A stretch of 63,534 nt of DNA, counting the filler. It is 5 parts of 5 records of this genome, joined end to end, with 100 filler letters (N's around TTAATTAATTAA, not from the genome) between each part and the next. Parts side by side here need not be neighbours in the genome. Positions count along the whole stretch, not along the records: positions 1 to 23,191 come from SRR22947725_358; 4 more parts are not named here. One strand, given 5' to 3'. Each line of letters begins with the position of its first letter. Position 1 is the stretch's first letter. The position numbers and the translations under genes are program-made. Below are positions 1,918-23,291 of this stretch, one piece after another. The notes under the pieces were generated by a model. That model was given only the letters and a program-made list of their open reading frames with translations, did not search any database and was not told the origin of the DNA.

Positions 1918-2805
1918 TTACCCGAGCTCATCAAGCTTACGCTCCCACTTCATATCTTTCGCAAACTTACGCAGCTCATCTTCAGGCATTTTTATTGTGT
2001 TTTCTGGACCAGGGTAGTTTCTGGTTTTCACATCATCCATATATCGGGTTATAACATCTTCCATAATCGGAATTAGATCTGTGTATATCCGAGAGTGCTT
2101 AGGCACATGCTCTTCCCACAGGTGGAACAAGTCCGAAGAAATGATATGGACACCGTCAGCACAGTTACCGGCACCCAAACTAATTACTGGTACTGGCAGA
2201 ATTTCAGCCAAGTATTCCGCAACCTCTGATGTTGTGACTTCACAAAGTATTGAGAAGCAGCCAGCATCGTACATTGCTTTAGCGTCATCGATTAACTCTT
2301 TGGCACGGTCTGCAGTCTTGCCCTGCGCAATAAAACCGCCAAGTTGAGGCATCCGCATTGGGGTGATACCGATATGGCCCTGAACAGGTATGCCGGCACT
2401 AACAATCGCCTCTATCGCGGGCACGTGATGACGGTTGCCCTCACACTTCATTACCTCAGCGTTAGCTTCGTGGACAAAACGCCCTGCATTTTCAACGGCC
2501 TGCTCTTTCGAAACGTGAAAACTCCAGTACGGCATATCGACCATTCTTAACCCATACTTGGACCCTCGATCAATCGCCTTTGACATCATCATCACTTCAT
2601 CAAAGCTAACAGCAGTTGTGCTCTGGTGACCAAATAAGATCATCCCACCCGTGTCTGAAACACACAATATATCCATGCCCAAGCGATCAGCGACAACTGC
2701 GGTTCTGTAATCATACGCCGCTAATTGGGTTATCGGCTCACCAGCTGCCATTTTCTTCTGCAATGTCTTAAACGTAACTTTCCTTCTTGGCTTGGCGTCA
2801 CTCAT
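1918..2805 (-). CDS. panB: PanB-family (ketopantoate hydroxymethyltransferase-like) protein, divergent
   Basis: Family motifs are present in variant form: AAYD, CVSDTGGM, VDMPYWSF, KCEGN, GHIGITPM, GAG..ADG. ATG 2805 has a GGAGG RBS. Confidence 0.8.
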   Translation of the reverse strand: MSDAKPRRKVTFKTLQKKMAAGEPITQLAAYDYRTAVVADRLGMDILCVSDTGGMILFGHQSTTAVSFDEVMMMSKAIDRGSKYGLRMVDMPYWSFHVSKEQAVENAGRFVHEANAEVMKCEGNRHHVPAIEAIVSAGIPVQGHIGITPMRMPQLGGFIAQGKTADRAKELIDDAKAMYDAGCFSILCEVTTSEVAEYLAEILPVPVISLGAGNCADGVHIISSDLFHLWEEHVPKHSRIYTDLIPIMEDVITRYMDDVKTRNYPGPENTIKMPEDELRKFAKDMKWERKLDELG

Positions 2806-2918
2806 TTTTTCCTCCACTTGATTTAATCAGCTAAATACAAGCTGTTTACTGCGTTCGCAGCTTATTTTTCAAAATATTAACTATTAGGTATCATAACGGC
2901 TTTGAAATAAAATCTCTC

Positions 2919-2975: not shown

Positions 2976-3725
2976 TTAAACAAAAATTACGTTGGTCAGC
3001 ATATAAATGCCAGACCCAAGTAATAAAAAGGCAACTAAATTCTTTATCTTGTCGACTGGTAAATGCTCAGACACTTTTGCACCAAGAAATGCACCCAAAG
3101 CTAAACCAGGTGACAAAAGCGCAACAATCTCCCAACGTATCATTCCTGACAATTCATTCCCAATAGTGGCAAATGCAGCGATAGGAATCTGGATCGCCTG
3201 CGACAAACCAATAACAGGGAGCAATGGCATCGATAAAAAGGTTAATATCGGCACTAAAACTAGCGGTCCACCAGTTCCACTGAGCACAGACAAACACGCA
3301 GTTACAAAGCCAACTAGTAGAAGGCTGACGTTTGATGGAGTAGTTTGATTGCGGGGGCGCGTCAACTTTATATTAGCAATCTGTTTGTATGACGCAAAAA
3401 TCAGAACGGCAGCAATAAAAAGTTTAAGTGATTCAGCATTAATTCTAGGGAGGGTATACGTGCCGACCAACGTCCCTGGGATTGCGCCTACCGTCAAGTA
3501 AACTAGCTGGAGCCAATTGATCTCACGCCTCTTTGCATAGGCAAGACTGCCGATTAAACCGGAAAAAATAAAAGAGGAAACCGCAGCAGCTATGCTAGAA
3601 TGGATGCTAAAGCCGGCGCCATAGACAAGCAACGGTACCAAAACTACGCCACCAATACCGGCAGCCCCTATCAAGGTTCCCGCAAATAAACCAAACAGAA
3701 AAACAAGACTGAACGACACCATCAC
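2976..3725 (-). CDS. TauE/SafE family sulfite exporter
   Basis: Hydrophobic 249-aa protein with the repeated GIGGVVLVP / GTGGPLVLVP motifs typical of TauE/SafE, located in a sulfonate catabolic context. Confidence 0.85.
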   Translation of the reverse strand: MMVSFSLVFLFGLFAGTLIGAAGIGGVVLVPLLVYGAGFSIHSSIAAAVSSFIFSGLIGSLAYAKRREINWLQLVYLTVGAIPGTLVGTYTLPRINAESLKLFIAAVLIFASYKQIANIKLTRPRNQTTPSNVSLLLVGFVTACLSVLSGTGGPLVLVPILTFLSMPLLPVIGLSQAIQIPIAAFATIGNELSGMIRWEIVALLSPGLALGAFLGAKVSEHLPVDKIKNLVAFLLLGSGIYMLTNVIFV

Positions 3726-3895
3726 TCCAATCGGTCAACTATAACGCAACATAATTCACTCGGAAAACTCAAACATAAATGATAACGTGATTGTCAGCAA
3801 AGGTTTTGACGGGCGTAATCCCTATTTTACAGGCAACTGCATTCAAACTATTTTCGTATTGGGTGAAAACAAAGTTTAGCTTAAAAGGCAACAGG

Positions 3896-4840
3896 ATGTT
3901 TCTGAAACAACTTGAATATCTTATCGCCGTTATCGAGGAAGATCACTTTGGACGGGCAGCAGCCCGGTGCAACGTTAAACAGCCCAGCTTATCAAACGGC
4001 ATAAAGCAATTAGAGTTTGAACTGGGTGTTACTCTATTCAAGAGAGGGCGCGGCCAACGCCTTTACGGCACTACGGAAGAAGGGGAACGCGTAGCTTACT
4101 GGGCCCGCCTAATCTTAGCTAATTGCACTGCCATGCGTGACAATATAGCTGAAATGCAGGACAGCTTAAATGGGACCATTCGCCTCGGCGCAATACCCTC
4201 AATGTCTCCTGTATTGCCAATTATTTTACAACGCATAAGAAAAGCATACCCCCTAGTCTCGGTCGATGTAAGATTTGTTGGAAATAATGAGTTAAAAACG
4301 AGTTTAGACAATTATTCGATTGACTGCGCCATAACCTACATAGACCAATCCGATGAAATGCCATGGTGTGAAGCCCTGCCAATTTTTGAGGAAACTTGGA
4401 GCTTATTGGTCCCCGACTCCTTTAAATTTGAGAACATGACTGAAATAACATGGGCAGAGGCTGCAGACCTACCACTGGCATTGCTACGACAATCAATGTA
4501 CGAGCGTTCAGTAATTGATCAAACATTTACCGTCGCTGGGAAAAGTGTTGTTCCAAAGATTGAGTCGGAGTCAATACTGCATTTAATGTTTCAAACCCAA
4601 TTTACAGAACTTTGCACGGTTATCCCGTCACACTACACCAGAATGCCTGGCCTTTATACTGGGACCAAAGCACTATTGTTAAAGGACCCAATTATACGAA
4701 AAGGAATAGGACTGTTTTGGGTAAAAACTGAGACAACCATTCCCGTCACAAAAATAACTGAAGAAGTTGGTCGTTCTCTTGCAAAAAACAATGAGCTACA
4801 GAATTTCCTTTATCATAAAGCAACTGCATTGGAGAGCTAA
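3896..4840 (+). CDS. LysR-family transcriptional regulator
   Basis: N-terminal HTH MFLKQLEYLIAVIEEDHFGRAAARCNVKQPSLSNGIKQLEFELG. ATG 3896 preferred over the TTG at 3791. Confidence 0.93.
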   Translation: MFLKQLEYLIAVIEEDHFGRAAARCNVKQPSLSNGIKQLEFELGVTLFKRGRGQRLYGTTEEGERVAYWARLILANCTAMRDNIAEMQDSLNGTIRLGAIPSMSPVLPIILQRIRKAYPLVSVDVRFVGNNELKTSLDNYSIDCAITYIDQSDEMPWCEALPIFEETWSLLVPDSFKFENMTEITWAEAADLPLALLRQSMYERSVIDQTFTVAGKSVVPKIESESILHLMFQTQFTELCTVIPSHYTRMPGLYTGTKALLLKDPIIRKGIGLFWVKTETTIPVTKITEEVGRSLAKNNELQNFLYHKATALES

Positions 4841-4880
4841 TACCCAGTTAGAGCTACTTTAAGATTTTTGATACAAAATA

Positions 4881-4911
4881 AGGAGCAGATATAAAATACC
4901 TGCTCCTTTTC
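4881..4911. terminator. probable bidirectional intrinsic terminator between lysR and msmA-like gene
   Basis: AGGAGCAG...CTGCTCCT inverted repeat followed by a T-run, between convergent genes. Confidence 0.65.
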
Positions 4912-4933: not shown

Positions 4934-6022
4934 TTATTCAGCAGCAATCACGTCCTCTGCGGTTAAGCCAAGAGGGTTGCTGGTAGATACTCCGAGGAAT
5001 TTTCCCCAGGCCTCGTAATAGTGGCGCATACCAACTTCATCATGAATCGTTGAGTTTTCGTGGCGACCATGCAAGATATTGCGGGCTTCGGTACCCTCTC
5101 TCATTGTTGTGCCTTGTCCTGAAACACCTATTAAATCCTCATGCAGATTACGGCCAAATGGGCCCCATATAGAGTTGTGGTGCTTTATACGGGTCTGACG
5201 CTCTTGTGGAGTATCTTTTTTAAGACCATAGCCCCTGAATTCGATGAGCACCTTGTTTGGACCAAGCGGCGTAACAGTGTCGCTTCTGTAAGCGCTCCCA
5301 CGGAGATTGAAATTGAAACCTGGGAACAAGTCTACCATGTACCATTGATTTGGCGGCAAGTTTGGAAAAGACAACTCCCCACGATCTTCAAACCCATCGT
5401 ACTCTTCATAGTTAACTGTGAAGCTGCTTACATTAACGTGGCCATTGTCAAACGGAATGTTTTTCCTAGCAAAATATTCATCATTGAACCCAGATACCCG
5501 GTTAAAATAATGCATGAAATCGTGGTAGAACTCACTGTTTGTATCGTGCCAGAGTTTGTAGTTAGTGTCGATAACTGCTTTGTGATAATGGAAAACTTCC
5601 ATTTCTTCAGTATCGATAGCGTCAGCAATGCAATCAAACGCGCCACAAGTCCATTCTTCAACGCTCTGTGTTGGATTAGGGTCGAGAGTTGTCCATACCA
5701 TGCCACCGTGCTTCACCTCGCTGTGAAGTTCCTTCAGTCCATCAGTATCCAATCCGTTACCGGCAGGGCGATCGATTGAAGGGCACAGAAAAACTTTTAT
5801 AGCGCCCTTACTATTTACCGCGACCACATTTTGGTGCGCTATCTGCGTTGACCGAAAATCACCGTCGTTAGCCATTTCGCTGAAGTGGCACATCGGAACC
5901 CAAACCTTCGCAAAAATATGCTCGATTTCCTGCTCATAAATGCTGTGATTATTGTAGCATTCGCTCGAAATGTGTTCGATATGTGGGGCTTTTAACCAAT
6001 TTTTATGATTTCTTGGCGGCAT
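4934..6022 (-). CDS. msmA: methanesulfonate monooxygenase alpha subunit-like protein: catalytic domain intact, Rieske ligands deleted
   Basis: Mononuclear-Fe region NYKLWHDTNSEFYHDFMH and C-terminal NLHEDL are present. There is no CxH...CxxH motif. ATG 6022 has a GGAG RBS. Confidence 0.85.
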   Translation of the reverse strand: MPPRNHKNWLKAPHIEHISSECYNNHSIYEQEIEHIFAKVWVPMCHFSEMANDGDFRSTQIAHQNVVAVNSKGAIKVFLCPSIDRPAGNGLDTDGLKELHSEVKHGGMVWTTLDPNPTQSVEEWTCGAFDCIADAIDTEEMEVFHYHKAVIDTNYKLWHDTNSEFYHDFMHYFNRVSGFNDEYFARKNIPFDNGHVNVSSFTVNYEEYDGFEDRGELSFPNLPPNQWYMVDLFPGFNFNLRGSAYRSDTVTPLGPNKVLIEFRGYGLKKDTPQERQTRIKHHNSIWGPFGRNLHEDLIGVSGQGTTMREGTEARNILHGRHENSTIHDEVGMRHYYEAWGKFLGVSTSNPLGLTAEDVIAAE

Positions 6023-6226: not shown

Positions 6227-7072
6227 TTATTTCGCGTTATTAACCTCGGTGAACTTGTTAACAAGCTTTTTGACAAGCGCTACATCAGACGTGGGCTCAT
6301 TAACGATTGATTTTAATGGCAGCAAAGTTTGGGGGTCGTAGTCAAGTAGGTGAGTTTTTGAACTTCCATTTGCTTCACTATCTTTAACAAAGAAAAATGG
6401 TGTGGGGCGCAAATGATCACCGAGACTTATTCCAATTGAAGGTAATTTGACTAGCTCGTTGTCTGCGCTAACGTTGAGAGTCAAAGAAAACGATTCCGGT
6501 TCTAACGTTATCCATTGCCGACATTTTGCAAATTCAGGCTGTTGGGCAAGTGTGTGCGACGCACTTTGGAGTATTTCGTTTCCTTTAAACACGCAACAAT
6601 TCAAAGCATCGAGCTCTAATTTATAAGCTGAAGCTTTGTGGTCTTCAGTATCACCCATCAACATATTTGGCGACGAGAAAGGAAGATCAGTGGAAAATTT
6701 TGATTGATCGCGGTCTCTATGAAGCAATTCAACTAAGTACCATGCCTCTGCAAATGCGGGCGTTCTGTCGTCCAACCAAAAGCTGTGAGGAACCTTCTGG
6801 CCCCCTTCACAAAAATACAATTCTAAGTCAGGGAAATTCAGACCAATTTGAAGGTCGCCGTCAAAAGATCTAGTTCGAAAATTATTTGAATCTCTATGCC
6901 AGAATAAACTCAAGTGCCCATTATTTGGAGTCGCGTCTAGAAAACTATTGGCTCCTCGAGCCATCCAAAACAAAGCGTTGTGCGCTTCGATTCTTGCTTG
7001 CCCAAACTGTTTCGTGTCGAAAATGCTTACAGATGGCCATTGACTTGAATTGTTCAACAAATTCTCTCTCAA
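6227..7072 (-). CDS. hypothetical protein in the msm cluster
   Basis: 281-aa ORF co-oriented with the msm genes. No motif recognised and the start is uncertain. Confidence 0.65.
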   Translation of the reverse strand: MRENLLNNSSQWPSVSIFDTKQFGQARIEAHNALFWMARGANSFLDATPNNGHLSLFWHRDSNNFRTRSFDGDLQIGLNFPDLELYFCEGGQKVPHSFWLDDRTPAFAEAWYLVELLHRDRDQSKFSTDLPFSSPNMLMGDTEDHKASAYKLELDALNCCVFKGNEILQSASHTLAQQPEFAKCRQWITLEPESFSLTLNVSADNELVKLPSIGISLGDHLRPTPFFFVKDSEANGSSKTHLLDYDPQTLLPLKSIVNEPTSDVALVKKLVNKFTEVNNAK

Positions 7073-7225: not shown

Positions 7226-7627
7226 TTACCACTCATCATCGTCGTCATCATCATCAAAAAAAGTATTTTCATCGATATCTTCATCTTCGTCGAAATTATA
7301 TTCAAGTTGCTCAGTAACATAAACCATTACGTTACTGCCTTCGACTTTGACATCGTATGTTTTAAGAGGCAACTCCGCCTCGTCCTGCAACTCCAAAGTT
7401 TCAAGGTCCCATGACCACAAATGCTTTGTACAAGTAAGCTTACAACCCATTACAAGGCCAGACTCTTCCAACGGTTCCTCAAGGTGAGGGCAAACTGGGG
7501 GTATGGCAACAAAGCCTTTCTTGTGATGAGCAACAGCAATAGGGATCCCTCCGCCAATACGAGCCCAAACTTTTTTAATTGAGCCTTCTGGTATCTCACT
7601 CTTGTCACAGACTTTTGTCCAAGTCAT
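7226..7627 (-). CDS. msmC: Rieske [2Fe-2S] ferredoxin (MSA monooxygenase ferredoxin-like) with acidic tail
   Basis: CPH-x17-CTKH motif and typical MTWTKVC start (ATG 7627). Follows the msmB-like gene. Confidence 0.88.
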   Translation of the reverse strand: MTWTKVCDKSEIPEGSIKKVWARIGGGIPIAVAHHKKGFVAIPPVCPHLEEPLEESGLVMGCKLTCTKHLWSWDLETLELQDEAELPLKTYDVKVEGSNVMVYVTEQLEYNFDEDEDIDENTFFDDDDDDDEW

Positions 7628-7697: not shown

Positions 7698-8198
7698 CTA
7701 GAGAGGCCAATGCGAGCCTTTATCGAGGCGCCTGTTATCTATTTTTGTTTCTCGATTAACAAATTTTGGCAAACTATCATTGATCAAAAATTTGTCATGA
7801 TACTTTCCAATCACAAAAAGTCTGCTTTCTCCAGAATCAAGGTGAGAATTAATCCCATCAAGCATATTTTGATAAATTACCACTGAACTTACAGCCTCTG
7901 CGGTTTTGCCATCCTCCGAAATATCTATGGTGTAAACAGATGTGTGCCTGTGAAGTGGTGAGTGATCAGTGTTATGTTTAGGCAGCATGTCCATGAGGCC
8001 AGTTAGCTCTTTTTTATCACCGCTGAAATAGGTCATATCCTTACCAATTTCGGGGCTATAAGACGTTATCGAGTAGAAAAAAGAGTCATCACAGAGATTG
8101 AACCAGTCAGCCCAGTTATTTTCATCCAGTGCCAGCGCGGCCTGATAAATTATTTTCTCAATCTTTCTCTCAATATTAACTAGTGAGTTGTTTTCCAT
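7698..8198 (-). CDS. msmB: ring-hydroxylating oxygenase beta subunit (MSA monooxygenase small subunit-like)
   Basis: About 165 aa, NTF2/SnoaL-like: ALALDENNWADW, YSITSYSPEI, LPKHNTDHSPLHRH, IDNRRLDKGSHWPL. Lies between the alpha-like gene and the ferredoxin. Confidence 0.85.
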   Translation of the reverse strand: MENNSLVNIERKIEKIIYQAALALDENNWADWFNLCDDSFFYSITSYSPEIGKDMTYFSGDKKELTGLMDMLPKHNTDHSPLHRHTSVYTIDISEDGKTAEAVSSVVIYQNMLDGINSHLDSGESRLFVIGKYHDKFLINDSLPKFVNRETKIDNRRLDKGSHWPL

Positions 8199-8305
8199 CT
8201 TTTTACTTTCCAAGTCCGCGTTTGATAATTTAAGTTAAAAATCTGCGTTAACGGTAGTGTTATTTCTTTGCCCTTAAAGGCCCAAGAAAACTGCGTAAAT
8301 TCTCT

Positions 8306-10696
8306 CTAGGATCTCGCCCCACCACTATCTATGGGAGAGAACGACAAGTCAGATATCTGCTCTGGATCTGGCGATTGCCCTGTATCTAAGCATTGCCGCG
8401 CTTCCATGTAAGTTGCAGGGTCGTTCACAACCTCAACCGCCACTAATTCTTTGCCTCGATAGCTCCAAAAAGATACTGCTCCATCACGTCTACCCTCACG
8501 GGCAACCTGATAGACATCGTCATCACTAATCGGGACAACACCTACTATTTGGAGTTTTACATCATACTGGTCGGACCAAAACCATGGGGTTTGCAACGTT
8601 GGCGCAACTGACCCGGTAACTGCTGCTGCTGCTACAGCTGCCGTCTCCTGAGCGTTGTGGACCGACTCAATTGCCAACAACTGATCACGGCGCAACGCGA
8701 CGTCACCCACGGCAAATACGTCCTTTTCACTAGTTTGCATAGTCTCGTCAACGAGAATGGCTCCACCACCTTTTCTCTGCGTCTCTATTCCAGCTTCTGC
8801 AGCCAACTTGCTATCGGGAAAAACACCAATACCGGTGATGAGCATGTCTCCAACAATTTTTTGACCGCTAGTGAGTGTGACACTATCAAAAATACCATCT
8901 TCTGCATTAATACTATCAACGCCAACGCCTGTGAGCACTTGCACCCCATTATCCTCGTGCAATTTCGTCAAGCGATCCGCTAGTGGTCCACTGGCAACCC
9001 TTGCTAAAATTCTCTCGGCAGCCTCTATAACGGTTACTGTCATTCCTTTTTTCCGAAGAGAGGCTGCAACCTCAAGCCCAATGTAGCCGCCGCCAATAAT
9101 CACAACCGTATCAGAATTATTTGCAGCCTGGCGAATGGCATTTGCATCAGACGGTTGACGCAAGGTAAAAGCATTACCCATCCCATGGGTATCAGGCAGT
9201 TCACGAGGAATCGCACCGCTGGCAATCACTAGGTTGTCGTAATTTATAATCGCTCCGCTACTAACTGTTATTGTCTTGTTCTTTGTGTCAATGGCCTCAA
9301 CGTTGGACTGCGTTTTGAGTTTAATTTTGTTAGCCTTGTACCACTTCTTTTGTCTCAACAGTGACTTTGACTCAACCGTCTCACCTCCCCCCAGCAGGAA
9401 CGCTTTTGAGAGGGGTGGTCGCTCCATTGGCCCACCAACCTGACGGTCAAAGACAGTCAAACGACCACCAAAACCATTTTTTCGGACCTTATCCACAAAA
9501 GCCACGCCAGCGTGACTTGCTCCAATGACCACAATATGAGGCCCAGAAAGCTCGCCATTCTCACTGAGTCCCTGAGCTTTGGAACTTGAGTTGGGTAACT
9601 CTGAAATACGTGTTTCACCATTTGGATGCTTATCCATCCAGCGCAACCATTCATTGTTATAATGGATGAACAAACCATTCTCTTCAACGTGGCCCGATTT
9701 GCTCTCGTTAGGTTCCGGCATCTTTTGCAAACGGAAGGGCCCAAACTTGGCATTATAGTGTTTTGACCGAAGCCTTCTCTCTTCTTCACTGTCTGCTTTG
9801 GGCGCCAAGCCCCGATTCTCAATCATTACTTGACTATCGTTCAAGGGAGTAATGGTCGCTACATTTAAGGTAGGTCCATCAAGGTGAAATGCAAAGCCAG
9901 GAAAAAGCCTGACGCTTGCGGATTGTAAGGACTCTGGAGGCGGGAAAGTGCTTGTCTGACTTGCATCGCTATTTTCAACTTCACCGTGTCTTGTCACGAT
10001 GTGTCCATAATCAAACATATTAGCGTTTGCATCGCCAGCAATCGACTCAAAATCTTGAGACATTAATTGTTGATAACCTGTGTCCACGACTTCCTTGTGA
10101 TAATGGACGACTTCAAGCGGTTCAGCGCAAATTTCCGCTTCAATTGCCGAAAATGCCGCCCCAGCCCATTCCTCAAGGAAAACGGCTGGCTGATCGTTCA
10201 TATTCACCCAAACGAATCCGCCATAATTGACTTCGCACCGCAACCTTCGCAGGCCCGCATCATCCTTACAAAACCTATCTTGATAACCTTCTTTCTCACG
10301 AGCTACGTATACGCAGTTGCCTCTCATATCAAATTGCCAAGCGTGAAACATGCAGGTGATCCTTTTTGGATTACCGGATGCTTGCCCTTCAAGGAAACTC
10401 CCTTGCGGTCGCCGCTCAATGAGCATTCCTCTGTGAGGACAAACGTTTAAAAGCGCGTTTACCTTTCCGTCCGGCGCCCGGCAAATGATTACATTCTCAT
10501 TGCCAATGCTCGATGTGCGAAAGTCATAAGGATCAGGCAGTTCAGACTCGTGGCATACTGGAACCCAAGCATTCTTGAAGATCCTTGATTGCTCTTCAAT
10601 AAAACCTTGGTCTAGCGCCCTGACCGCGACTTTAGCAGAAGTAGTTGACTGATCATTGTTGGTTAGAGCGTCGGGGTTGTTTTCTACGAAATCCAT
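8306..10696 (-). CDS. fusion of MsmA-type Rieske domain, degenerate catalytic domain and GR-type FAD/NADH ferredoxin reductase
   Basis: CPH (10433-10441)-x26-CMFH (10343-10354). Fe ligands are missing from the middle domain. The C-terminal ~410 aa carry VVIGASHAG, IGGGYIGLE, VFAVGDVA and PWFWSDQY. Confidence 0.9.
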   Translation of the reverse strand: MDFVENNPDALTNNDQSTTSAKVAVRALDQGFIEEQSRIFKNAWVPVCHESELPDPYDFRTSSIGNENVIICRAPDGKVNALLNVCPHRGMLIERRPQGSFLEGQASGNPKRITCMFHAWQFDMRGNCVYVAREKEGYQDRFCKDDAGLRRLRCEVNYGGFVWVNMNDQPAVFLEEWAGAAFSAIEAEICAEPLEVVHYHKEVVDTGYQQLMSQDFESIAGDANANMFDYGHIVTRHGEVENSDASQTSTFPPPESLQSASVRLFPGFAFHLDGPTLNVATITPLNDSQVMIENRGLAPKADSEEERRLRSKHYNAKFGPFRLQKMPEPNESKSGHVEENGLFIHYNNEWLRWMDKHPNGETRISELPNSSSKAQGLSENGELSGPHIVVIGASHAGVAFVDKVRKNGFGGRLTVFDRQVGGPMERPPLSKAFLLGGGETVESKSLLRQKKWYKANKIKLKTQSNVEAIDTKNKTITVSSGAIINYDNLVIASGAIPRELPDTHGMGNAFTLRQPSDANAIRQAANNSDTVVIIGGGYIGLEVAASLRKKGMTVTVIEAAERILARVASGPLADRLTKLHEDNGVQVLTGVGVDSINAEDGIFDSVTLTSGQKIVGDMLITGIGVFPDSKLAAEAGIETQRKGGGAILVDETMQTSEKDVFAVGDVALRRDQLLAIESVHNAQETAAVAAAAVTGSVAPTLQTPWFWSDQYDVKLQIVGVVPISDDDVYQVAREGRRDGAVSFWSYRGKELVAVEVVNDPATYMEARQCLDTGQSPDPEQISDLSFSPIDSGGARS

Positions 10697-11009: not shown

Positions 11010-12116
11010 ATGATTAATATTTTAAAAACATCCGTTAAAATGGCGGCTCTCGGTGCTGTCGTGATGGGAGCATCGGCCGCCAATGCTGGCGTTGATTTTG
11101 GAAAAAGAGGTGAAGCCGTTAACTTGGTAATCGGTTATCAGCCTTATTATACCGAGTCTTGGACAGGTGTGGTGAATAACGGGAAAAGCTTTTGGAAAAA
11201 ACATCTTCCAGCTGGTTCTACCGCTGAATTTCAGGTTGGGCTTCAGGGCTCAGTTATTGTGAATGCAATGGCTGGAGAAAAGCAGCACATTGGTTACATG
11301 GGTGACATGCCTGCTATCGCGTCCACCTTTAAGTACTTGCCCGAGCGTGGTGGCACTGACATTCGCATCGTTGCCGCTCTTGGCACTTCAAAGCAGCAAT
11401 GTAATATTTTCCTTGTGAAAAATGATGCGCCTAAATTTGCTGATGGTGTCGCAGCTGTTAAGTGGATGGACGGGAAAATTACATCCGCCCCTCACGGTGC
11501 TTGTACCGACAGATTTGCTCAGGCAGCTTTTAAATCAGCAGGCGTAAAGCCAGCAAAATATCTCAATCAAAACATTGAGGTTATCACCACCAATTTTCGG
11601 GCTGGCAAACTAGATGCAGCAGCCATTTGGGAGCCAACAGCAACCAAGATGGTTAAATCTGGTATTGCACGTCGCGCGGCATCGGGTGAAGATTTTGGTC
11701 TTCAGGATGGTGCGTTCATGGTGATGCTGAATGACCTGATTTCACAGCGTCCTGATGCTGTCATGGGCTGGCTAGAAGCCGAGCTTGACGCTCAAGAGTT
11801 TGTTGCCAACCCAGGCAATGCTGATGCAATCGCAGCAATGGCTGAGGCTCAGACCGAAAAAATTGACCAGTCAGTTCTGAAGGCCAGTCTTTATGATTCG
11901 CCAATGGCAGGAACAACCAAATTGCAGCTTGATTTCACAATCAGTGACGATGCGAAATCACTGCTTCGCGATGCAACGGCATTCTTATACAGCTTGAAGA
12001 AGAAGCCAGCTGCGGCCCCACAAATTCGTCCAGAGGGCGTTATGGGTCAGTTTGCAGAGCGCGTGCTTGAAAAGCGTGGCTTAAAGACTCCAGTCGGACG
12101 CATTGTAGCGAAATAA
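11010..12116 (+). CDS. msmE: sulfonate/nitrate-type ABC transporter substrate-binding protein (MsmE-like)
   Basis: Signal peptide, IGYQPYYTESW, IGYMGDMPAI, AAIWEPTA. Divergent from the msm oxygenase genes. Confidence 0.85.
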   Translation: MINILKTSVKMAALGAVVMGASAANAGVDFGKRGEAVNLVIGYQPYYTESWTGVVNNGKSFWKKHLPAGSTAEFQVGLQGSVIVNAMAGEKQHIGYMGDMPAIASTFKYLPERGGTDIRIVAALGTSKQQCNIFLVKNDAPKFADGVAAVKWMDGKITSAPHGACTDRFAQAAFKSAGVKPAKYLNQNIEVITTNFRAGKLDAAAIWEPTATKMVKSGIARRAASGEDFGLQDGAFMVMLNDLISQRPDAVMGWLEAELDAQEFVANPGNADAIAAMAEAQTEKIDQSVLKASLYDSPMAGTTKLQLDFTISDDAKSLLRDATAFLYSLKKKPAAAPQIRPEGVMGQFAERVLEKRGLKTPVGRIVAK

Positions 12117-12131
12117 TTTATCCAAACTTAG

Positions 12132-12165
12132 AACCAAGGCCCACCCAGAGTTGGGCCTTGGTTTT
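12132..12165 (+). terminator. stem-loop after the binding-protein gene (partial terminator or stabiliser)
   Basis: AACCAAGGCCCA...TGGGCCTTGGTT 12-bp stem followed by TT. Confidence 0.7.
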
Positions 12166-12282
12166 CTAAATTGATTAATTATTTATTTAGTTATTTCGTA
12201 TTTCCACATTCAACGAATGAAATGTCGCCTTTGGATAGACATGTTGAGTAAAACGCAAAGTATTTAGTACCGGAGCGAAGAA

Positions 12283-13155
12283 ATGAACACTTCAGCAGAT
12301 TCAAACAAGGTTGCACCCGAGGGTTTTAACCTCTTCCTTTACCGGACAAAGAAGAAATTTAGTGGGCCTGACCCATACTTGACAATTGCAGGGGTATTCT
12401 TGTGGCTTTTTGTTTATTGGGTCTTGTGTGAAGGGCTTCAGGTCTGGCGCTTTACCAAATTACCTGGACCGGTAGCAATTTCCAAGGACTGGTTTTCCAT
12501 GACACCATTCCAAGGTATTTCAATTTTTACACAAGAGTATTACGATCATATTTATGTCAGCTGCCAACGAATTCTCATTGCGTTTGGCATTGCTACCGGT
12601 CTCGGGGTGCCCCTCGGACTATTCATGGGTTGGTCCAGATCCATCAGGGATTATATCTTTCCAATCATTGAGTTGCTCCGCCCAATCCCAATCCTCGCAT
12701 GGGTCCCGCTATCCATTTTGTTGCTACCCGGTTTTGAGGGACCAGTGATTTTCCTTGCGACTTTAGCATCATTTTTTGTCACGACACTTAATGCCATGCT
12801 TGGGGTCGACTCAATCGATGAAGAGTATTTCAGAGCCGCAGGCTGTTTAGGTTCATCCCGTTGGGACGTATTTAAAAACGTGGTTGTTCCTGGAGCCTTG
12901 CCATTCATTTTTACTGGCTTGCAAATATCTATCGGAGTTGCATGGTTCTCTCTGGTGGCTGCTGAAATGGTTTCTGGAGATCTGGGCTTGGGTTACCTAA
13001 TCGTTGATGCCTACATGAACAATGTAACCGTTCCGATGGTTATCGCCATGATCACTCTTGGTTTTATTGGCTATTTTAGTTCTGCCTGTGTGCGCGCTCT
13101 TGGGGACAGGTTGATGGCTTGGCACGTTAAGGAGCTTGCCCAACAAGGACGGTAA
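12283..13155 (+). CDS. msmF: ABC transporter permease (SsuC/TauC type, MsmF-like)
   Basis: LRPIPILAWVP, EAA-like loop RAAGCLGSS, LVAAEM. Confidence 0.82.
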   Translation: MNTSADSNKVAPEGFNLFLYRTKKKFSGPDPYLTIAGVFLWLFVYWVLCEGLQVWRFTKLPGPVAISKDWFSMTPFQGISIFTQEYYDHIYVSCQRILIAFGIATGLGVPLGLFMGWSRSIRDYIFPIIELLRPIPILAWVPLSILLLPGFEGPVIFLATLASFFVTTLNAMLGVDSIDEEYFRAAGCLGSSRWDVFKNVVVPGALPFIFTGLQISIGVAWFSLVAAEMVSGDLGLGYLIVDAYMNNVTVPMVIAMITLGFIGYFSSACVRALGDRLMAWHVKELAQQGR

Positions 13156-13187
13156 TCAATTTTTTGCGATCAAATCTTTAAAACAAA

Positions 13188-14057
13188 TTGGACATGAAAG
13201 TTAAATCAATGGCTAAAAACACCTCAAAAGCAGAAAAAAAAGGTGCGCTAAGCATTAAGAACGTCACAAAAATTTATGATCCTACTGGCGTAAATGTGAT
13301 GGCTGTTGATGACTGCTCCATGGAAATAGCGGGTGGTGAAGTATGTATGATTGTTGGGCCCTCAGGATGCGGTAAAACTACTTTGTTAAATGGTATTGCA
13401 GGATTTCATTCAATAACAGAGGGAAGTATCCATCTGGACGGCGAACTACTTTGTGGACCAGGAAAGCCAAAGGCTGATCAGAGCGCTGAACGTATGGTCG
13501 TATTCCAGCATGGCGCACTTTTTCCATGGAAGACATTACAAGAGAATGTCGCTTATGGCCCGTCCGTTCAAAAAGCTTTGTCGCCAGCACAAGCCCTGGA
13601 CAAAGCAGGACAAATGCTTGCAGAAGCAGGGTTGGGAAACTTTCTTAAAAAATACCCTGGTGAAGTATCCTCTGGCATGGCTAGGCGCGCCGAAATTGTG
13701 AGAGCCTTGATTAACAACCCAAAAGTTCTTTTATTGGACGAGCCCTACCGTGCGATGGACGCGCTAACAAAACAGATTATGCATGAATCACTTCTCGAAA
13801 CCTACGATCGTACCGGAGTAACAATCTTTTTTATTACCCACGATTTGGAGGAGGCAATATTCCTTGGTGACAAAGTCCACATTGTCACGACTCGACCCTG
13901 TCAGCTTAAAAAGACTGTGGAGGTGAAAATACCTCGCCCGCGTTCCTACGAAACACAGTCATCTGAAAAGTTTAGAAAGCTGCTCGCAGAAGTTAATGAC
14001 GCTGTTCACGAGGAAGCAGTCAAAGCCTTTAAAGCGGGCGAGAGAGAACTGGCTTAA
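13188..14057 (+). CDS. msmG: ABC transporter ATP-binding protein (MsmG-like) with variant signature
   Basis: Walker A GPSGCGKT, signature VSSGM, Walker B LLLDE, H-loop ITH. The start may be ATG 13194 or 13209. Confidence 0.85.
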   Translation: MDMKVKSMAKNTSKAEKKGALSIKNVTKIYDPTGVNVMAVDDCSMEIAGGEVCMIVGPSGCGKTTLLNGIAGFHSITEGSIHLDGELLCGPGKPKADQSAERMVVFQHGALFPWKTLQENVAYGPSVQKALSPAQALDKAGQMLAEAGLGNFLKKYPGEVSSGMARRAEIVRALINNPKVLLLDEPYRAMDALTKQIMHESLLETYDRTGVTIFFITHDLEEAIFLGDKVHIVTTRPCQLKKTVEVKIPRPRSYETQSSEKFRKLLAEVNDAVHEEAVKAFKAGERELA

Positions 14058-14119
14058 AACCCTAGAAATAACGAGACGCCCCGCAATGGGGACCGATTAG
14101 AAATACGACAGAGGCAACA

Positions 14120-14932
14120 ATGACTAATTTTCTGCAGAAGCTTTTCAAAAACACGACTACACGGCGCGGTATCGGAGCGGTCATTATTTTTGTGATCATA
14201 TGGCACATCGGATCGCAGCTTGATGAGTGGACTGGTTACGATTTGCTTGGTATTGGCCTTGTGCCACCGCCCGCGCATGTTTTTACTGCCTTTCTTGAAG
14301 TAATACCACTGCATGGTTACTGGATGAGTTGGGTGGCAAGCTTCAGCCGGGTAATTACTGGCTTCTTGGTTGCGATGCTGATCGGGATACCATTTGGGCT
14401 TTTGTTAGCAGTAAACCGATATTTTCGGGGCGTCTTTTTCCCTCCGTTTGAAATTCTAAGGCCCATACCGCCGCTTGCATGGGTGCCGGCGTCGCTGATT
14501 TTCTGGCCTACTAATGAAATGTCAATCGCATTTGTCACGTTCCTAGGCGCATTCTTTACTATTGTTATTAACGTCTTGGGTGGCGCCCGTAGCATAGACA
14601 TCAGTTATTTAAGGGCAGCTCAGTCTATGGGTGCAAGCCAGTTCGATCTCTTCTGGAAAATAGTTCTACCAGGAACACTACCATCCATTTTCACAGGCGC
14701 CGCTGTTGGCATGGGGATTACTTGGGAGGTTGTCTTGGCGGCAGAAATGATTTCTGGCGGCGGAACACAAGGTGGTGGTGGCCTCGGCTTCTTTATCTGG
14801 AACTCTTATATGGGCGGGTCTTTAGAACAAATCGTTGTTGGAATGATTTCCATCGGCATCGCCGGGTACCTTTCGTCAAGCGCGATAAGAAAAATTGGCT
14901 TTCACTTCATGCCGTGGCGCCGCCTTTTCTAG
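14120..14932 (+). CDS. msmH: ABC transporter permease (MsmH-like)
   Basis: LRPIPPLAWVP, RAAQSMGAS, VLAAEM. Confidence 0.82.
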   Translation: MTNFLQKLFKNTTTRRGIGAVIIFVIIWHIGSQLDEWTGYDLLGIGLVPPPAHVFTAFLEVIPLHGYWMSWVASFSRVITGFLVAMLIGIPFGLLLAVNRYFRGVFFPPFEILRPIPPLAWVPASLIFWPTNEMSIAFVTFLGAFFTIVINVLGGARSIDISYLRAAQSMGASQFDLFWKIVLPGTLPSIFTGAAVGMGITWEVVLAAEMISGGGTQGGGGLGFFIWNSYMGGSLEQIVVGMISIGIAGYLSSSAIRKIGFHFMPWRRLF

Positions 14933-14989
14933 ATCTAACTCAAATCAAAAACCATTAACAAACTGACTTTGAATTATCGGAGAAATTTT

Positions 14990-15835
14990 ATGGCAACAAC
15001 AAAATCAAAAAAGAAGGAGCCAAAAGCTACTCGTTCAAGAAAATTGGATAGTTCTTCAGTGTCCTTGAAAGGTGTAAGCAAATCTTACGGTGAAGAATGG
15101 CAGTCGGATGATGTTCTTAAAAATATTTCTGTCGATTTTCCCGCCGGCGAGTTGACAGTAATTGTTGGCCCTTCAGGCTGCGGCAAGTCAACACTTGTTA
15201 ATTTGTTGGCTGGATTTGAGACTCCCGATACAGGAGAAGTTCTTGTTGATGGAAAGCCAGTAACGGGGCCCGCAAAAGATAGGATGGTGGTTTTCCAAGA
15301 AACGGCTCTCATACCTTGGCAAACAACTCTTGAAAATGTCACTTTTGGTCCAAAGATGCGGGGAGAAAAGAAAGGGGCATCTTTACAAAGAGAGGCAGAA
15401 GACCTGTTGATCAAGGTTGGGCTTGGAGAGTTTATGAATAAATTCCCGATCCAGCTTTCAGGCGGCATGCAAAGGCGGGCTGAGTTAGCAAGAGCTCTAA
15501 TAAATGAGCCAACTGTTATGCTTATGGATGAACCTTTTCGTGGCCTTGATGCAATGTCTCGAAGCTTGATGCAAGAATTCTTCCTTGAGCTTTTTGAGGA
15601 GAACCAAAAAACCAACATTTTTGTGACTTCGGAGATTGATGAAGCTATTTTCTTGGCAGATAACTTAGTTATTCTCTCTAATAAGCCCACTACTGTTCAG
15701 ACAGTGATCAAAATTGATCTGCCGCGGCCCCGTAATTATAAAATGCTAACTACAGCCAAGGCCTTTAAATACAAGCGACAGGCCATGGATCTATTGCATG
15801 GTGAAGCAATGAAGAGTTTTGCGGTTCTTAAATAA
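14990..15835 (+). CDS. second ABC ATP-binding protein, H-loop His replaced by Ser
   Basis: GPSGCGKS, LSGGM, LMDE, and VTSE in place of VTHD. Confidence 0.88.
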   Translation: MATTKSKKKEPKATRSRKLDSSSVSLKGVSKSYGEEWQSDDVLKNISVDFPAGELTVIVGPSGCGKSTLVNLLAGFETPDTGEVLVDGKPVTGPAKDRMVVFQETALIPWQTTLENVTFGPKMRGEKKGASLQREAEDLLIKVGLGEFMNKFPIQLSGGMQRRAELARALINEPTVMLMDEPFRGLDAMSRSLMQEFFLELFEENQKTNIFVTSEIDEAIFLADNLVILSNKPTTVQTVIKIDLPRPRNYKMLTTAKAFKYKRQAMDLLHGEAMKSFAVLK

Positions 15836-16176: not shown

Positions 16177-16887
16177 ATGCCACACTTACAAGCGATTAAT
16201 CTCTCTAAATCTTACTCCAACAAAAGGGCGTTGATGGATTGCTCTTTTTCTGCAACTGGTGGTGAGGTAATTGGCATCCTAGGTGCAAACGGTGCTGGCA
16301 AGTCAACTTTAATAAAGCTACTTGCAGGCGTAATAAAACCGGATAAGGGTGATGCCATTCTGAATGGGCGTTCAATTCGAAAAGAAAGAAGGGAAGCTCA
16401 GGGCAAAATTGGATACTTGCCTGAAGTAACTGGTGGCTTTGACGACATAACTGTTTACGAATTTTTATCATTTTCAGCCAATGCACACGGGATTTTTGGG
16501 AGAGCCATGCGTGGGGCTGTTTCTAGGATTTGTGAAGAACTAGAGCTGGGTGAGGTAAAGTATCAAAAACTTTCAGACTTATCAAAAGGCTGGCGCCAAA
16601 GAGCTTGGCTTGGCCAATCTTTAATTCACAACCCTGACATATTATTTCTTGATGAGCCCACTGACGGATTTGATCCAATCCAGAAGATTGCTATCCGGAA
16701 TCATATTAAAACACTGTCAAAAGGTAAAATAATTTTGATGTCGACCCACATCTTAGAGGAGGCAGAGGCAATTTGTGACCGTGTCTTGATTATAAACAGT
16801 GGAAGGTTAGTTGAAGATGGCCCAACTTCATCATTGGTTGATAAAAAAGGCCGTTTAGAAGAAACTATTAGAGTTTTTGCGAGCTAA
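16177..16887 (+). CDS. ABC-2 type ATP-binding protein (GldA-like)
   Basis: GANGAGKS, LSKGWRQR, LDEPTDG, STHIL. Confidence 0.88.
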   Translation: MPHLQAINLSKSYSNKRALMDCSFSATGGEVIGILGANGAGKSTLIKLLAGVIKPDKGDAILNGRSIRKERREAQGKIGYLPEVTGGFDDITVYEFLSFSANAHGIFGRAMRGAVSRICEELELGEVKYQKLSDLSKGWRQRAWLGQSLIHNPDILFLDEPTDGFDPIQKIAIRNHIKTLSKGKIILMSTHILEEAEAICDRVLIINSGRLVEDGPTSSLVDKKGRLEETIRVFAS

Positions 16888-16908
16888 ACAGTTAATTGGA
16901 AAATTAAC

Positions 16909-19491
16909 ATGAAATCAGAATCTCCAAAAGCCACCAGCTCAGAAATGTGGTCACCATTGGCTGGGATAAGAACTGTTTTTCATCATGAATTAAGGCAGCG
17001 TGTTTTTAATTTTTCAACAGCAATTTTTTTATCTGGAATACTATTTTTTCTATCGGTATGTATCTTTCTTGTCGGAGATTTCTTAGACACAAATTTGGCA
17101 ACGTTAACGTTGCAATGGCAGTTCTTACCGTGGATTTCGGTAATTTTTTTACCCGCTTTGGCAATGCGAAGTTTTCAGGGCAAAAACCTAGGAGATGTCG
17201 GCTTGATACTCTCCTACCCAATTCCAGCATATTCCACCATTATTGGAAAATGGCTCGCTGGAATAGTGTTGATAGCTTGCGCCTTGGCCCTGACCTTTCC
17301 ATTCGTAATAACGGTAACGTCAATTGGCACACCTGATCTGGGTATATTAGTTTCAGGCTACCTAGGTGCTTTTCTTGCACTATCGTTACTTTACTCAGTA
17401 GCGTTACTAGCGTCGGCGATATGTAAAGAAGAAATAAGTTCGTTTTTACTTGGCTCAAGTTTGATTTTTATCCTTCTTTTTACAGACGTAAATGCTGTGC
17501 AAACTTCATTAGTCCCTGATTGGTTTAAGTATGTAGGCCATTATCTTTTTGTGATTAGCCCAAAACATTGGATGGATGAATTAACAACCGGTCAAATCAG
17601 TTTGTCAGCAGTGCTATACTTTATTCTCCTGACATCTCTAGCGTTATTATTAGCCTGTCAACAAATGCGTGGGTACTATTCGGCACCAAAACATCCGTTT
17701 GCCCCTTTTATATCCGGCATTGTTGGCTTGTTTCTCTGTGCTGCATTCGTTGGCAGCGCGGCGCGCGGTATTGAAAATTTTGATCTGAAATTCGACGTCA
17801 CTGAGCACAAAGAATATACGTTTAGGCAAGGGACTTTAGAAATTGCAAAAAATAGTTCAAGCGACACCCAAGTAACTCTCTACGTTAGTGAAGACAAAAG
17901 TTTAATACCACCTCAAATCGTTCAGCATATTGATCGAGTTTCTCGGGCACTTTCAAACCTAACAAAACAGAGCGATGGCCGTATCAACTCTAAGTCTGTT
18001 CTCTTAAAGCCAGATACTGATTTGGCAGAGGCCGCAGAGTTGGCAGGCATTAGAAAAATACCAATGAGTTCTGGCGACAGTTTATATTTTGGTGCTGTTT
18101 TCACATCAGGTGGTAAACAACTAGTAACAAGCTATTTTGATGTTAACCGAGCAACTTCTCTTGAATATGACCTAGCTCTCCAATTGAGTAATTTATCTAG
18201 AAGCAAAACCCCACACATTGGTGTTTTGTCGTCGGTATTGAAACCAGCGAATATAGACACACCGCACGCCGGCTTGTCAGTTTTGGAAGAATTAAAAAGC
18301 CAATATGATGTGTCTATAATACCTTATTTTTCTGATGGCTTAACAGAAACGTATGATGTTTTGATCGTATTCGATGCGCCAGTCGTCAGAAAAGAAACCC
18401 TCAAGGACATTGACCTACACATACAAAGTGGGAAGGGAGCAATTTTGATGCTGGACCCTTTCCAGCGTATGAACAGCGCGAATGCTAAACTGTCGATCAA
18501 GCCATCAACAGATGGGCAAATCAATTCAATTGATGATTTATTACAATCCTACGGCTTAGATTTTTCAAATAGCAAAATCATTGGAGATTTTAAGAACGCC
18601 GCGACAGTGGAGTCCGCTACAGGGCGAAACTTTTCATACCCCTACTGGCTTCAAATCAAAGGCAATAATATTTCTAAAAAACACATTGTCTCTGACAATT
18701 TAAAAGAACTTTTGTTTGCTGAAGCTGGTTTTTTTGAGACAAACAAAAAAGATATTGACGTTCAACCAATCATTCTAACCAGTACCGAGACAAATTTTCT
18801 TAGCAAACGAGAATTGCGTGAAAAGTCTACTGAAACTCTGGCTACAGAGTTTAAAGCCACAAGTGAGGTACGTAAGATAATTGCTCTGCATTTATCCGGA
18901 CAAGTGGACTCACCATATGGGCAAACAAAAAATGAAACAAACAAGCCCGCCTCCTCAATATTCGCAATAGCCGATGTTGATTGGATTTATAACGGCTTTA
19001 GCCTAGCCGACGCACGGATGGGTGATCGAGCCTTCTCACGTCCAATAAATGATAACCACAAGCTGTTTTTAAATATGGTTGAGCATATAGCTGGCGACCC
19101 TAACCTCATGAACATCCGTTCAAGGGAAAGCCCTGTCAGGACATTTACCGCAATAGAGGAAATGCTTTTCGAGAGTCGAAAAGCGTACTACAAGCGAGAG
19201 GCTGACTTCGTGTCACGCATAAGCAACACTGAGGCAAGCATCACCAAAGTTTTAGAGATGACTGGGGCAAAAAGTGTTGAAGAACTGCCATTAACATTGA
19301 GGACCCAAATAAAAGACTTACGCTCAGCAGCATATCCGATAAGACGCGAATTGCGTGAAATTCGTTTAAAAATGCGTGAGGGTATCAATAGAAAGTTCAA
19401 AAATATCACCCTAATTAACCTGTTATCAGGCCCAGTCTTAACTCTAGTCCTATTTCTGTTTGTTCGGCGCTTTCGCCGAACACAGGATTGA
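16909..19491 (+). CDS. fused ABC-2 permease (GldF-like) and ABC auxiliary domain (GldG-like)
   Basis: N-terminal ~6 TM domain (FLPALAMR, IIGKWLA), then DVTEHKEYT, YFGAV, LEYDL, ADVDW and a C-terminal TM helix. Confidence 0.8.
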   Translation: MKSESPKATSSEMWSPLAGIRTVFHHELRQRVFNFSTAIFLSGILFFLSVCIFLVGDFLDTNLATLTLQWQFLPWISVIFLPALAMRSFQGKNLGDVGLILSYPIPAYSTIIGKWLAGIVLIACALALTFPFVITVTSIGTPDLGILVSGYLGAFLALSLLYSVALLASAICKEEISSFLLGSSLIFILLFTDVNAVQTSLVPDWFKYVGHYLFVISPKHWMDELTTGQISLSAVLYFILLTSLALLLACQQMRGYYSAPKHPFAPFISGIVGLFLCAAFVGSAARGIENFDLKFDVTEHKEYTFRQGTLEIAKNSSSDTQVTLYVSEDKSLIPPQIVQHIDRVSRALSNLTKQSDGRINSKSVLLKPDTDLAEAAELAGIRKIPMSSGDSLYFGAVFTSGGKQLVTSYFDVNRATSLEYDLALQLSNLSRSKTPHIGVLSSVLKPANIDTPHAGLSVLEELKSQYDVSIIPYFSDGLTETYDVLIVFDAPVVRKETLKDIDLHIQSGKGAILMLDPFQRMNSANAKLSIKPSTDGQINSIDDLLQSYGLDFSNSKIIGDFKNAATVESATGRNFSYPYWLQIKGNNISKKHIVSDNLKELLFAEAGFFETNKKDIDVQPIILTSTETNFLSKRELREKSTETLATEFKATSEVRKIIALHLSGQVDSPYGQTKNETNKPASSIFAIADVDWIYNGFSLADARMGDRAFSRPINDNHKLFLNMVEHIAGDPNLMNIRSRESPVRTFTAIEEMLFESRKAYYKREADFVSRISNTEASITKVLEMTGAKSVEELPLTLRTQIKDLRSAAYPIRRELREIRLKMREGINRKFKNITLINLLSGPVLTLVLFLFVRRFRRTQD

Positions 19492-19504
19492 TTTTGTTAA
19501 GCGC

Positions 19505-23191: not shown

Positions 23192-23291
23192 NNNNNNNNN
23201 NNNNNNNNNNNNNNNNNNNNNNNNNNNNNNNNNNNTTAATTAATTAANNNNNNNNNNNNNNNNNNNNNNNNNNNNNNNNNNNNNNNNNNNN
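23192..23291. other. synthetic contig linker N44-TTAATTAATTAA-N44
   Basis: Six-frame stop spacer. Genes are truncated on both sides. Confidence 0.97.

Follow-up and report, generated by a model that had tools for sequence, protein, structure and literature searches.

The window, the whole 63,534-nucleotide stretch of DNA analyzed here, carries a gene cluster related to msmABCD, the genes of methanesulfonate (MSA) monooxygenase. On the minus strand the order is a fused gene, a beta subunit, a Rieske ferredoxin, a conserved 281-residue protein and a second alpha subunit. The fused gene is a single open frame for 796 residues (8306..10696), in which a Rieske-bearing paralogue of MsmA with a dead iron site (alpha-R) is joined to a glutathione reductase (GR)-type ferredoxin reductase. 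The second alpha subunit (alpha-Fe; 362 residues, 4934..6022) has the reverse makeup. It retains E164, H167, H171 and D296, a 50-residue deletion removes its Rieske cluster-binding subdomain, and it is of the type encoded by phages as MsmA. The beta subunit between them is msmB-like (171 residues, 7698..8213), with weak Ring_hydroxyl_B/SnoaL matches and 53-70% identity to the gene in the same place in loci with an ordinary alpha subunit. Family searches identify the ferredoxin as msmC-like (132 residues from its ATG, with an acidic tail; 7226..7624).

The Fused Alpha Subunit and Reductase

Alpha-R spans residues 1-360 of the fused protein (9617..10696). Its Rieske domain is intact and the sheet of its catalytic domain is retained; the iron-ligand helix and the iron-Asp segment are deleted or scrambled. 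The Rieske motif C86-x-H88-X26-C115-x-x-H118 (10343..10441) has the long MsmA-type spacer, a signature given in the available text of PMC4433239. A linker follows at residues 366-381 (9554..9601), with low confidence in the AlphaFold model (predicted local distance difference test score below 50 at residues 364-382), and residues 384-796 (8309..9547) form a GR-type FAD/NAD(H) reductase domain with Reductase_C, as indicated by Pfam and solved-structure matches. Pfam finds Rieske at 44-132 (E 6e-17), Pyr_redox_2 at 387-686 (E 6e-62) and Reductase_C at 705-786 (E 1e-21). Ring_hydroxyl_A has no Pfam match on the fusion because the catalytic domain is degenerate. The initial annotation, made from the sequence alone, had expected all four of these domains in one 796-residue reading frame joining an alpha-like part to a GR-type reductase. 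Apart from Ring_hydroxyl_A this description stands, with the gene on the minus strand and the reductase motifs GASHAG, GGGYIGLE, GD and PWFWSDQY all present.

Continuity of the reads across the linker (9500-9700) was called for in the initial annotation and was found: contigs bridge the linker without gaps in four of four public runs (9491-9839, 9138-10821, 9015-9997 and 9333-9653). RNA runs also cover the fusion region as contigs, which is no measure of transcription or its level. A search with residues 20-360 matched 55 proteins, 38 of them full Rieske and GR fusions; the alpha parts of these 38 clusters are 48-96% identical, and the clusters hold ∼1,770 member sequences, fragments included. 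From 477 genome loci the best 80 were kept. Eighteen (L001-L018) are of the fusion type, comprising 15 complete fusions, two cut at contig ends and one that is split, and the other 62 have an ordinary alpha subunit and are called canonical here. By record titles, the fusion-type loci come from SAR116, two Rhodobacteraceae/Planktomarina bins and one Magnetovibrio bin, and the cultured species Candidatus Puniceispirillum marinum has a named fused record of 798 residues (ADE40345.1). Stop codons in the linker of homologues, which would have spoken for separate genes, are not the rule; one nested subclade is split, one helix before the linker. The fusion is confirmed as a genuine gene, standing in place of msmD.

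A chimeric assembly or a missed stop codon was entertained as an explanation given the patchwork nature of the window, which after position 23192 has four pairs of N runs and a drop in G+C from ∼45% to 24-30%, probably reflecting other contigs or organisms. It is refuted by the gap-free stretch at 1-23191, the four bridging runs, the 15 complete fusions among 18 genome loci and the 798-residue record from a cultured species.

MsmD, the FNR-type reductase of canonical clusters, is encoded in 58 of 62 canonical loci (the four misses being short contigs) versus none of the 18 fusion-type loci. In 17 fusion genomes no orthologue was found: the best match has E 4e-10, compared with E 1e-240 and 8e-129 for two canonical controls. 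None was found in the single-contig genome G115 either. A tblastn search of the whole window detected no other reductase, FNR- or GR-type. For the organism of the window, the absence of msmD rests on the window itself and on its relatives. These results bear out two proposals of the initial annotation, that the cluster has no separate reductase gene and that a non-orthologous reductase has replaced MsmD.

The best solved matches to the reductase half are PuR (3fg2), ArR (3lxd) and PdR (1q1r), ahead of BphA4 and TodA (E 5e-64 to 1e-47). Foldseek returns the same GR-type reductases at 30-34% identity, and fold searches found nothing beyond the expected reductases and Rieske alpha subunits. Fold and motifs are shared with all five of these proteins, which are stand-alone. 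The fused domain has what marks GR-type, oxygenase-coupled ferredoxin reductases, namely Pyr_redox_2 with Reductase_C, two dinucleotide motifs and no cluster of its own, and it scores under every NCBIfam equivalog cut-off. The generalization that GR-type reductases pair with Rieske ferredoxins is half the picture, as PuR, ArR and PdR are partners of P450 ferredoxins.

Two Alpha Subunits with Complementary Losses

The two alpha subunits of the window are 30% identical and complementary. Alpha-R retains C86, H88, C115 and H118 with the 26-residue spacer and has lost the segments bearing the iron ligands. Alpha-Fe has no Pfam Rieske match and no CxH-X26-CxxH motif, and its deletion through the Rieske ligands is fixed at 50 residues (56 versus 106 residues between two anchors). 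Ligands were tabulated for 62 canonical, 18 alpha-R, 17 alpha-Fe and 81 viral sequences, with alpha subunits shorter than 320 residues (L015 and one piece of L060) and the duplicate fusions L009, L162 and L163 omitted; five viral references were dropped from alignment A4 after one contained stops. All 18 alpha-R sequences keep the four Rieske ligands, and none keeps the bridging Glu, either iron His or the iron Asp. The reverse holds for 17 of 17 alpha-Fe and 81 of 81 viral sequences, and the split types show zero exceptions to the complementary pattern.

Conservation follows the same division. The kept segments are conserved as well as or better than in canonical MsmA: the cluster-binding segment of alpha-R is 96% identical within its group versus 91% in canonical MsmA, and the iron-His helix of alpha-Fe is 96% identical within its group and 91% identical to canonical MsmA. 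The lost segments are unconstrained and near random, with within-group identities of 9% (alpha-R) and 18% (alpha-Fe). By the family motifs, the kept residues would be predicted to bind the metals. Parts of the scaffold outside these segments also persist, including the base of the Rieske domain in alpha-Fe (73-85% identical within the group) and the catalytic-domain sheet in alpha-R (occupancy 0.95). A fused alpha subunit that is merely a decaying relic, with alpha-Fe fed straight by MsmC, would agree with the fast divergence of the catalytic half of alpha-R (37% identity to canonical in the sheet, long branches), but is very improbable in view of the strongly conserved cluster-binding segment and of the re-split subclade, in which alpha-R is maintained as a separate gene.

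The two genes also travel together. Alpha-Fe is present at 83-97% identity in 16 of 17 fusion genomes, and the single miss is a genome with its fusion on a 2.8-kb contig. An msmA-like gene occurs in 17 of 192 genomes of the order; alpha-Fe is present in 15, the fusion alone in one (the 2.8-kb contig) and a canonical copy in one. Each of the 15 genomes with alpha-Fe also has the fused gene, or a fragment of it at the end of a contig. Where alpha-Fe has been relocated (G006 and G012), it stays within ∼12 kb. One of these bins, G006, has two full copies of the split cluster (C16 and C45), with alpha-Fe beyond the transporter genes. Among 401 sampled Alphaproteobacteria, a sample that does not establish absence elsewhere, only G001 has alpha-Fe at high identity and one genome has a canonical copy.

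Taken together, these data support a reading, to which we assign a probability of about 0.78, in which the alpha subunit of MSA monooxygenase has been divided by function between two paralogues with complementary losses. The activity, binding, stoichiometry and substrate of this split enzyme are predictions from sequence. The initial annotation had correctly seen the replacement of MsmD by a fused GR-type reductase and had missed that the fused alpha subunit is incomplete, catalytically dead and complemented by alpha-Fe.

Proposed Electron Path and Subunit Arrangement

In the proposed mechanism, NADH would reduce the FAD of the fused GR domain, as its motifs and fold suggest. A preference for NADH is predicted because an acidic residue follows the second dinucleotide strand, the usual rule for NADH-preferring enzymes. 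From FAD, electrons would pass, most likely through free MsmC, to the Rieske cluster of alpha-R. MsmC is the likely carrier because it is conserved: all 15 of the fusion-type loci that extend to its position encode it, its Rieske motif is intact in seven of seven checked, and its median identity to the window (89%) is above that of the reductase (76%) and of the fused alpha part (64%). The earlier suggestion that MsmC may be dispensable is therefore not favored, and MsmC is probably still needed. Alternatively, the tether could allow direct transfer from FAD to the Rieske cluster of the fused alpha subunit, leaving MsmC optional or serving another acceptor. The fusion arose once and was kept across 38 clusters, its linker of ∼20 residues is flexible, and the reductase of the re-split form holds the last alpha-subunit helix and could stay docked. 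Direct transfer nevertheless seems unlikely, given the presence of MsmC at every such locus, its conservation above both fused domains, and the fact that a GR-type reductase with a Rieske ferredoxin is a standard pair (BphA4/BphA3, 2yvj; TodA/TodB, 4emj).

The Rieske tip of alpha-R would then dock onto the catalytic face of alpha-Fe, like neighboring subunits in ordinary Rieske oxygenase rings. In those rings the cluster of one alpha subunit feeds the iron of the next, across ∼12 Å between subunits versus 45 Å within one (PMC12445004, available text). Electrons would cross E164 to the iron held by H167, H171 and D296 of alpha-Fe, where O2 would be activated and methanesulfonate cleaved to formaldehyde and sulfite. 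Rather than a closed ring of three equal sites, the functional unit is probably an open pair of alpha-R and alpha-Fe stabilized by the beta subunit, although this is the least certain step. An open pair is suggested because each paralogue retains only one face of the head-to-tail interface. Identity to canonical MsmA in the donor-face interface columns is 67% for alpha-R against 14% for alpha-Fe (occupancy 0.55); in the acceptor-face columns it is 9% for alpha-R and 74% for alpha-Fe.

A two-chain model of alpha-R with alpha-Fe scored 0.88, and the best of three controls scored 0.00; the mark used for such models is reached by 116 of 157 solved pairs and 2 of 215 mismatched pairs. Contacts agree between runs at ≥80%, and the partner has a local confidence score of ≥82. 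Of the two possible head-to-tail orientations the model takes the productive one, with H167 of alpha-Fe touching H118 of alpha-R. Such a model shows likeness, not binding.

The main rival to the open pair is a 3:3 assembly like that of NdmCDE, in which alpha-Fe makes up an alpha3-beta3 core and the fusion, as a donor module from outside, occupies the space vacated by each deleted Rieske subdomain, stably or transiently. The modeled two-chain interface also fits this arrangement, NdmCDE is reported as 3:3:3 (PMC10380055), and the retained base of the Rieske domain in alpha-Fe would suit it. The donor face needed to close the ring is about half lost in alpha-Fe, however, and the whole catalytic sheet kept in alpha-R would be needless for a pure donor. 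A core of this kind is possible but is the less likely arrangement.

Several observations weigh against the split-enzyme interpretation or limit its support. The tally of interface faces is partly circular, as the interface includes the ligand segments. The complex score may reflect likeness to solved alpha3 rings, canonical MsmA rows are in both alignments, and ligands were included in the model, which is outside the calibration. Homology, rather than tested activity, decides which sequences count as canonical. The tethering of the electron source proposed in the initial annotation holds for 38 clusters, but the re-split subclade indicates that the covalent link between alpha subunit and reductase is not obligatory. 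In trees, alpha-Fe falls outside the alphaproteobacterial canonical group (approximately unbiased (AU) test, p 0.045), and may not be the sister of alpha-R by simple duplication. Other electron donors are possible because fusion genomes hold further reductases: G005 and G010 have FNR-type proteins, although only distant ones (23-37% identity), and several others (including G014, G015, G016 and G115) have a second, free GR reductase elsewhere. Free GR reductases of this family occur widely in the order (counting fused copies, 92 of 192 genomes have a match at E ≤1e-90), and most of the genomes are incomplete metagenome-assembled or single-amplified genomes. In G115 the free GR reductase sits beside aldehyde dehydrogenase and GcvT-like genes.

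Methanesulfonate is the predicted substrate because the 26-residue spacer, the identity of the iron site and the msmEFGH, tauE, panB, gcvT and lysR context are shared with Filomicrobium. Another small sulfonate or C1-sulfur compound, instead of or besides methanesulfonate, might be considered, as literature searches returned no growth or assay data for these bacteria and the alpha-Fe sheet differs from canonical by ∼27%. This is distinctly unlikely, given iron-site segments 79-91% identical to canonical and the full msmEFGH, tauE and C1 context.

Comparison with Known Enzymes

MsmABCD of Methylosulfonomonas methylovora M2, Marinosulfonomonas TR3 and Filomicrobium Y and W (PMC4433239, available text) shares with the split enzyme the CxH-X26-CxxH motif, the iron-site sequence, the beta subunit and Rieske ferredoxin encoded after msmA, and a context of divergent msmEFGH with tauE, panB, gcvT and lysR neighbors. 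In the split enzyme, by contrast, no single alpha subunit has both metal sites. The Rieske motif is found on the fused protein only, the iron site and bridging acid are absent from that chain (0 of 18 alpha-R) and present on alpha-Fe (17 of 17), the product of a separate, later gene, and the stand-alone FNR-type MsmD is absent, its place taken by a GR-type reductase fused to the Rieske-bearing alpha subunit.

A second relative in mechanism is NdmCDE, the caffeine N7-demethylase of Pseudomonas putida CBB5 (PMC4408171, PMC10380055), in which a Rieske-less oxygenase is fed by a Rieske domain fused to the reductase (PMC4408171). Both systems have a Rieske-less catalytic subunit and a cluster on the reductase polypeptide. 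NdmD, however, combines an FNR-type reductase (FMN and plant-type cluster) with a Rieske domain only and needs the glutathione S-transferase (GST)-like NdmE, whereas the GR-type FAD reductase of the split enzyme is joined to an entire dead alpha paralogue, in a system that retains the beta subunit and free ferredoxin. No GST family match was found among the cluster proteins, including the 281-residue protein. The resemblance would be convergent, as the oxygenase lineages differ. The split enzyme thus lacks two defining features each of MsmABCD and NdmCDE and works like a blend of both. It is also, by its sequence features, not a self-sufficient Rieske oxygenase, of which none is known according to the available text of PMC12445004: the fusion, with its iron site lost, does not unite reductase, Rieske cluster and catalytic iron on one chain.

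The split would make sense of an older puzzle. PMC4433239 reports two MsmA proteins in Ca. P. marinum IMCC1322, one lacking the Rieske motif, and the same lack in phage HMO-2011 and in Global Ocean Sampling (GOS) and virome sequences. Its available text leaves the Rieske-less forms unexplained, excludes them from trees and does not mention the fusion, the dead iron site or complementation. The available text of PMC5068391, PMC12262181, PMC8547437, PMC4928673, bioRxiv 2024.06.09.598105 and bioRxiv 2021.01.05.425418 treats msmA as a single marker, a phage gene or a matter for engineering. In the papers found the split is undescribed, although subscription papers, supplements and figures were mostly outside the scope of the search and an earlier mention is possible. 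The split-alpha reading offers a testable answer to the Rieske-less MsmA of SAR116, GOS, viromes and HMO-2011. It implies that in SAR116 the 26-residue spacer, taken as the sign of a functional MsmA, belongs to the catalytically dead half, and that the half with the iron site is the one discarded as misannotated. If true, a Rieske cluster would have been relocated to the reductase chain in nature a second time, independently, and among the papers found this would be the first instance involving a GR-type reductase. The arrangement would also offer a natural template for the fusion designs called for in a 2025 review (PMC12445004, available text).

Viral Copies of Alpha-Fe

ADW08429.1 of phage HMO-2011 is 73.8% identical to the window's alpha-Fe over 97% of the latter's length and sits by itself amid phage genes. 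The host species of this phage has both halves, ADE40345.1 (fused alpha-R) and ADE40352.1 (364 residues, Rieske-less alpha-Fe), both labeled as MSA monooxygenase alpha subunits. A cultured host with both halves and a phage with one bring a test within reach. Alpha-Fe-type proteins are encoded on at least 600 stretches of viral contigs. In all of the best 80 viral loci the alpha subunit is Rieske-less and has every iron ligand, and the flanks contain no further msm gene. The Rieske motif is likewise missing from 91 further viral loci (some repeat a contig), of which 86 are complete and carry the full iron motifs and five are cut at contig ends. A search for Rieske-bearing msmA in viral contigs gave seven pattern matches, none of them related, although it used exact short patterns that diverged copies can escape. 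Purifying selection on viral msmA has been reported (bioRxiv 2021.01.05.425418, available text). A split enzyme would explain why marine phages carry only an apparently incomplete, catalytic copy.

A second viral lineage of Rieske-less MsmA (L254-L270), ∼56% identical to the window's, groups with an intact MsmA of low-G+C type (P0042). It lost the Rieske cluster separately, as a single clade for all Rieske-less forms is rejected (AU p 0.011). The hosts of these viruses may have only intact alpha subunits. Because viral copies lost the cluster two or more times, phage chains without it may also be served by intact host alpha subunits.

The direction of transfer can be read either way. Alpha-Fe groups with viral copies (support 98-100), and two trees nest the cellular rows among viral ones. 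Constrained trees scored above the free quick tree, both with the viral rows as one clade (AU p 0.56) and with the cellular rows as one clade (AU p 0.68), so that transfer from phage to host is one possible direction. The viral tree sample is biased to the best matches of three queries, and one tree used 19 of 168 viral rows (84%-identity representatives) with L143 omitted. A broader scenario, doubtful as a whole, would join these strands. The threefold ring would have been abandoned for a one-way donor chain (reductase plus Rieske alpha subunit) and an exchangeable, cluster-free catalytic chain that phages supply and that may also run on intact host alpha subunits. The SAR116 alpha-Fe may then derive from a gene captured from a phage; with it in place, the resident msmA could have lost its iron site and become fused to a neighboring GR reductase. 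Phages supplying an exchangeable chain would have an analogy in cyanophages, which supply D1.

Origin of the Fusion

The fused reductases form one clade (support 100), sister to free reductases that are ∼55% identical. The fused alpha subunit branches within alphaproteobacterial canonical MsmA, close to a Puniceispirillales copy that has retained msmD, and occupies the place of msmA in the operon. One contig of 39% G+C (L274:2-3856) carries a GR reductase from the free sister group, cut at its 5′ end, together with tauE and an intact msmA of 416 residues. With the reductase two genes before the intact msmA, this locus is possibly the unfused ancestral state, seen once.

A nested subclade has been split again, into a 330-residue alpha subunit and a 465-residue reductase at an ATGA overlap (L013:9884-12270). 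The split leaves the last alpha-subunit helix on the reductase, which this helix may dock back onto the 330-residue protein. The subclade comprises six clusters with 214 members (P0383-P0388) in addition to L013. A sequencing frameshift in L013 was rejected, as the same 465-residue form recurs in these six clusters within one nested clade. A metagenome scan for more split loci found none and returned only two fused loci.

A distant family (∼30% identity) with a tandem alpha-alpha′-beta-FNR reductase arrangement (L168-L170, L174, L177 and L178) provides an independent instance of Rieske loss next to an intact alpha subunit. Its first alpha subunit retains both sites, and the second is graded: the Rieske site is intact in G403:C12, one His ligand is replaced in G225:C57, and the cluster-binding subdomain is deleted in G532:C8.

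Neighboring Genes

The conserved 281-residue protein (6227..7072, minus strand) occurs in split clusters and also beside msmD in many canonical clusters. It has no Pfam or NCBIfam match; the only lead is DUF5996-like, from an Atlas cluster with DUF5996 in 29% of its members. Promoter-like sites in the window are at chance level (9 versus 11.3). Directly 3′ of alpha-Fe lies a terminator-like hairpin of 13 pairs (4880..4908, minus strand), a consensus match only.

At the left end of the window, 3..1667 (minus strand) encodes a putative formate-tetrahydrofolate ligase-like protein, which would provide a route for the formaldehyde carbon. Next to it is a PanB-like hydroxymethyltransferase for C1 transfer (1918..2817, minus strand), assigned by Pfam and also found in the Filomicrobium msm region (PMC4433239 Table 1, available text). 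Pfam further identifies a TauE/SafE sulfite exporter (2976..3725, minus strand) and a LysR regulator (3791..4840, plus strand). On the other side of the cluster, a divergent msmEFGH-type sulfonate ABC transporter with a second ATPase (11010..15835, plus strand) is laid out as in canonical loci and the available text of PMC4433239. It is followed on the plus strand by an ABC ATPase and an 860-residue permease/ABC_transp_aux fusion (16177..19491), found beside msmEFGH in many split and canonical clusters, and by a GcvT-like aminomethyltransferase (19460..20632) of the conserved msm neighborhood.

Three loci (L016:13636-18226, L017 and L164:9912-14502) have a three-gene molybdoenzyme complex inserted between msmC and the gene for the 281-residue protein; the complex also follows msmD in the canonical locus L019. 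NCBIfam gives only DMSO reductase family matches for it. The complex is presumably soeABC-like, which would place sulfite disposal within the msm operon. This label also draws on the available text of PMC12262181.

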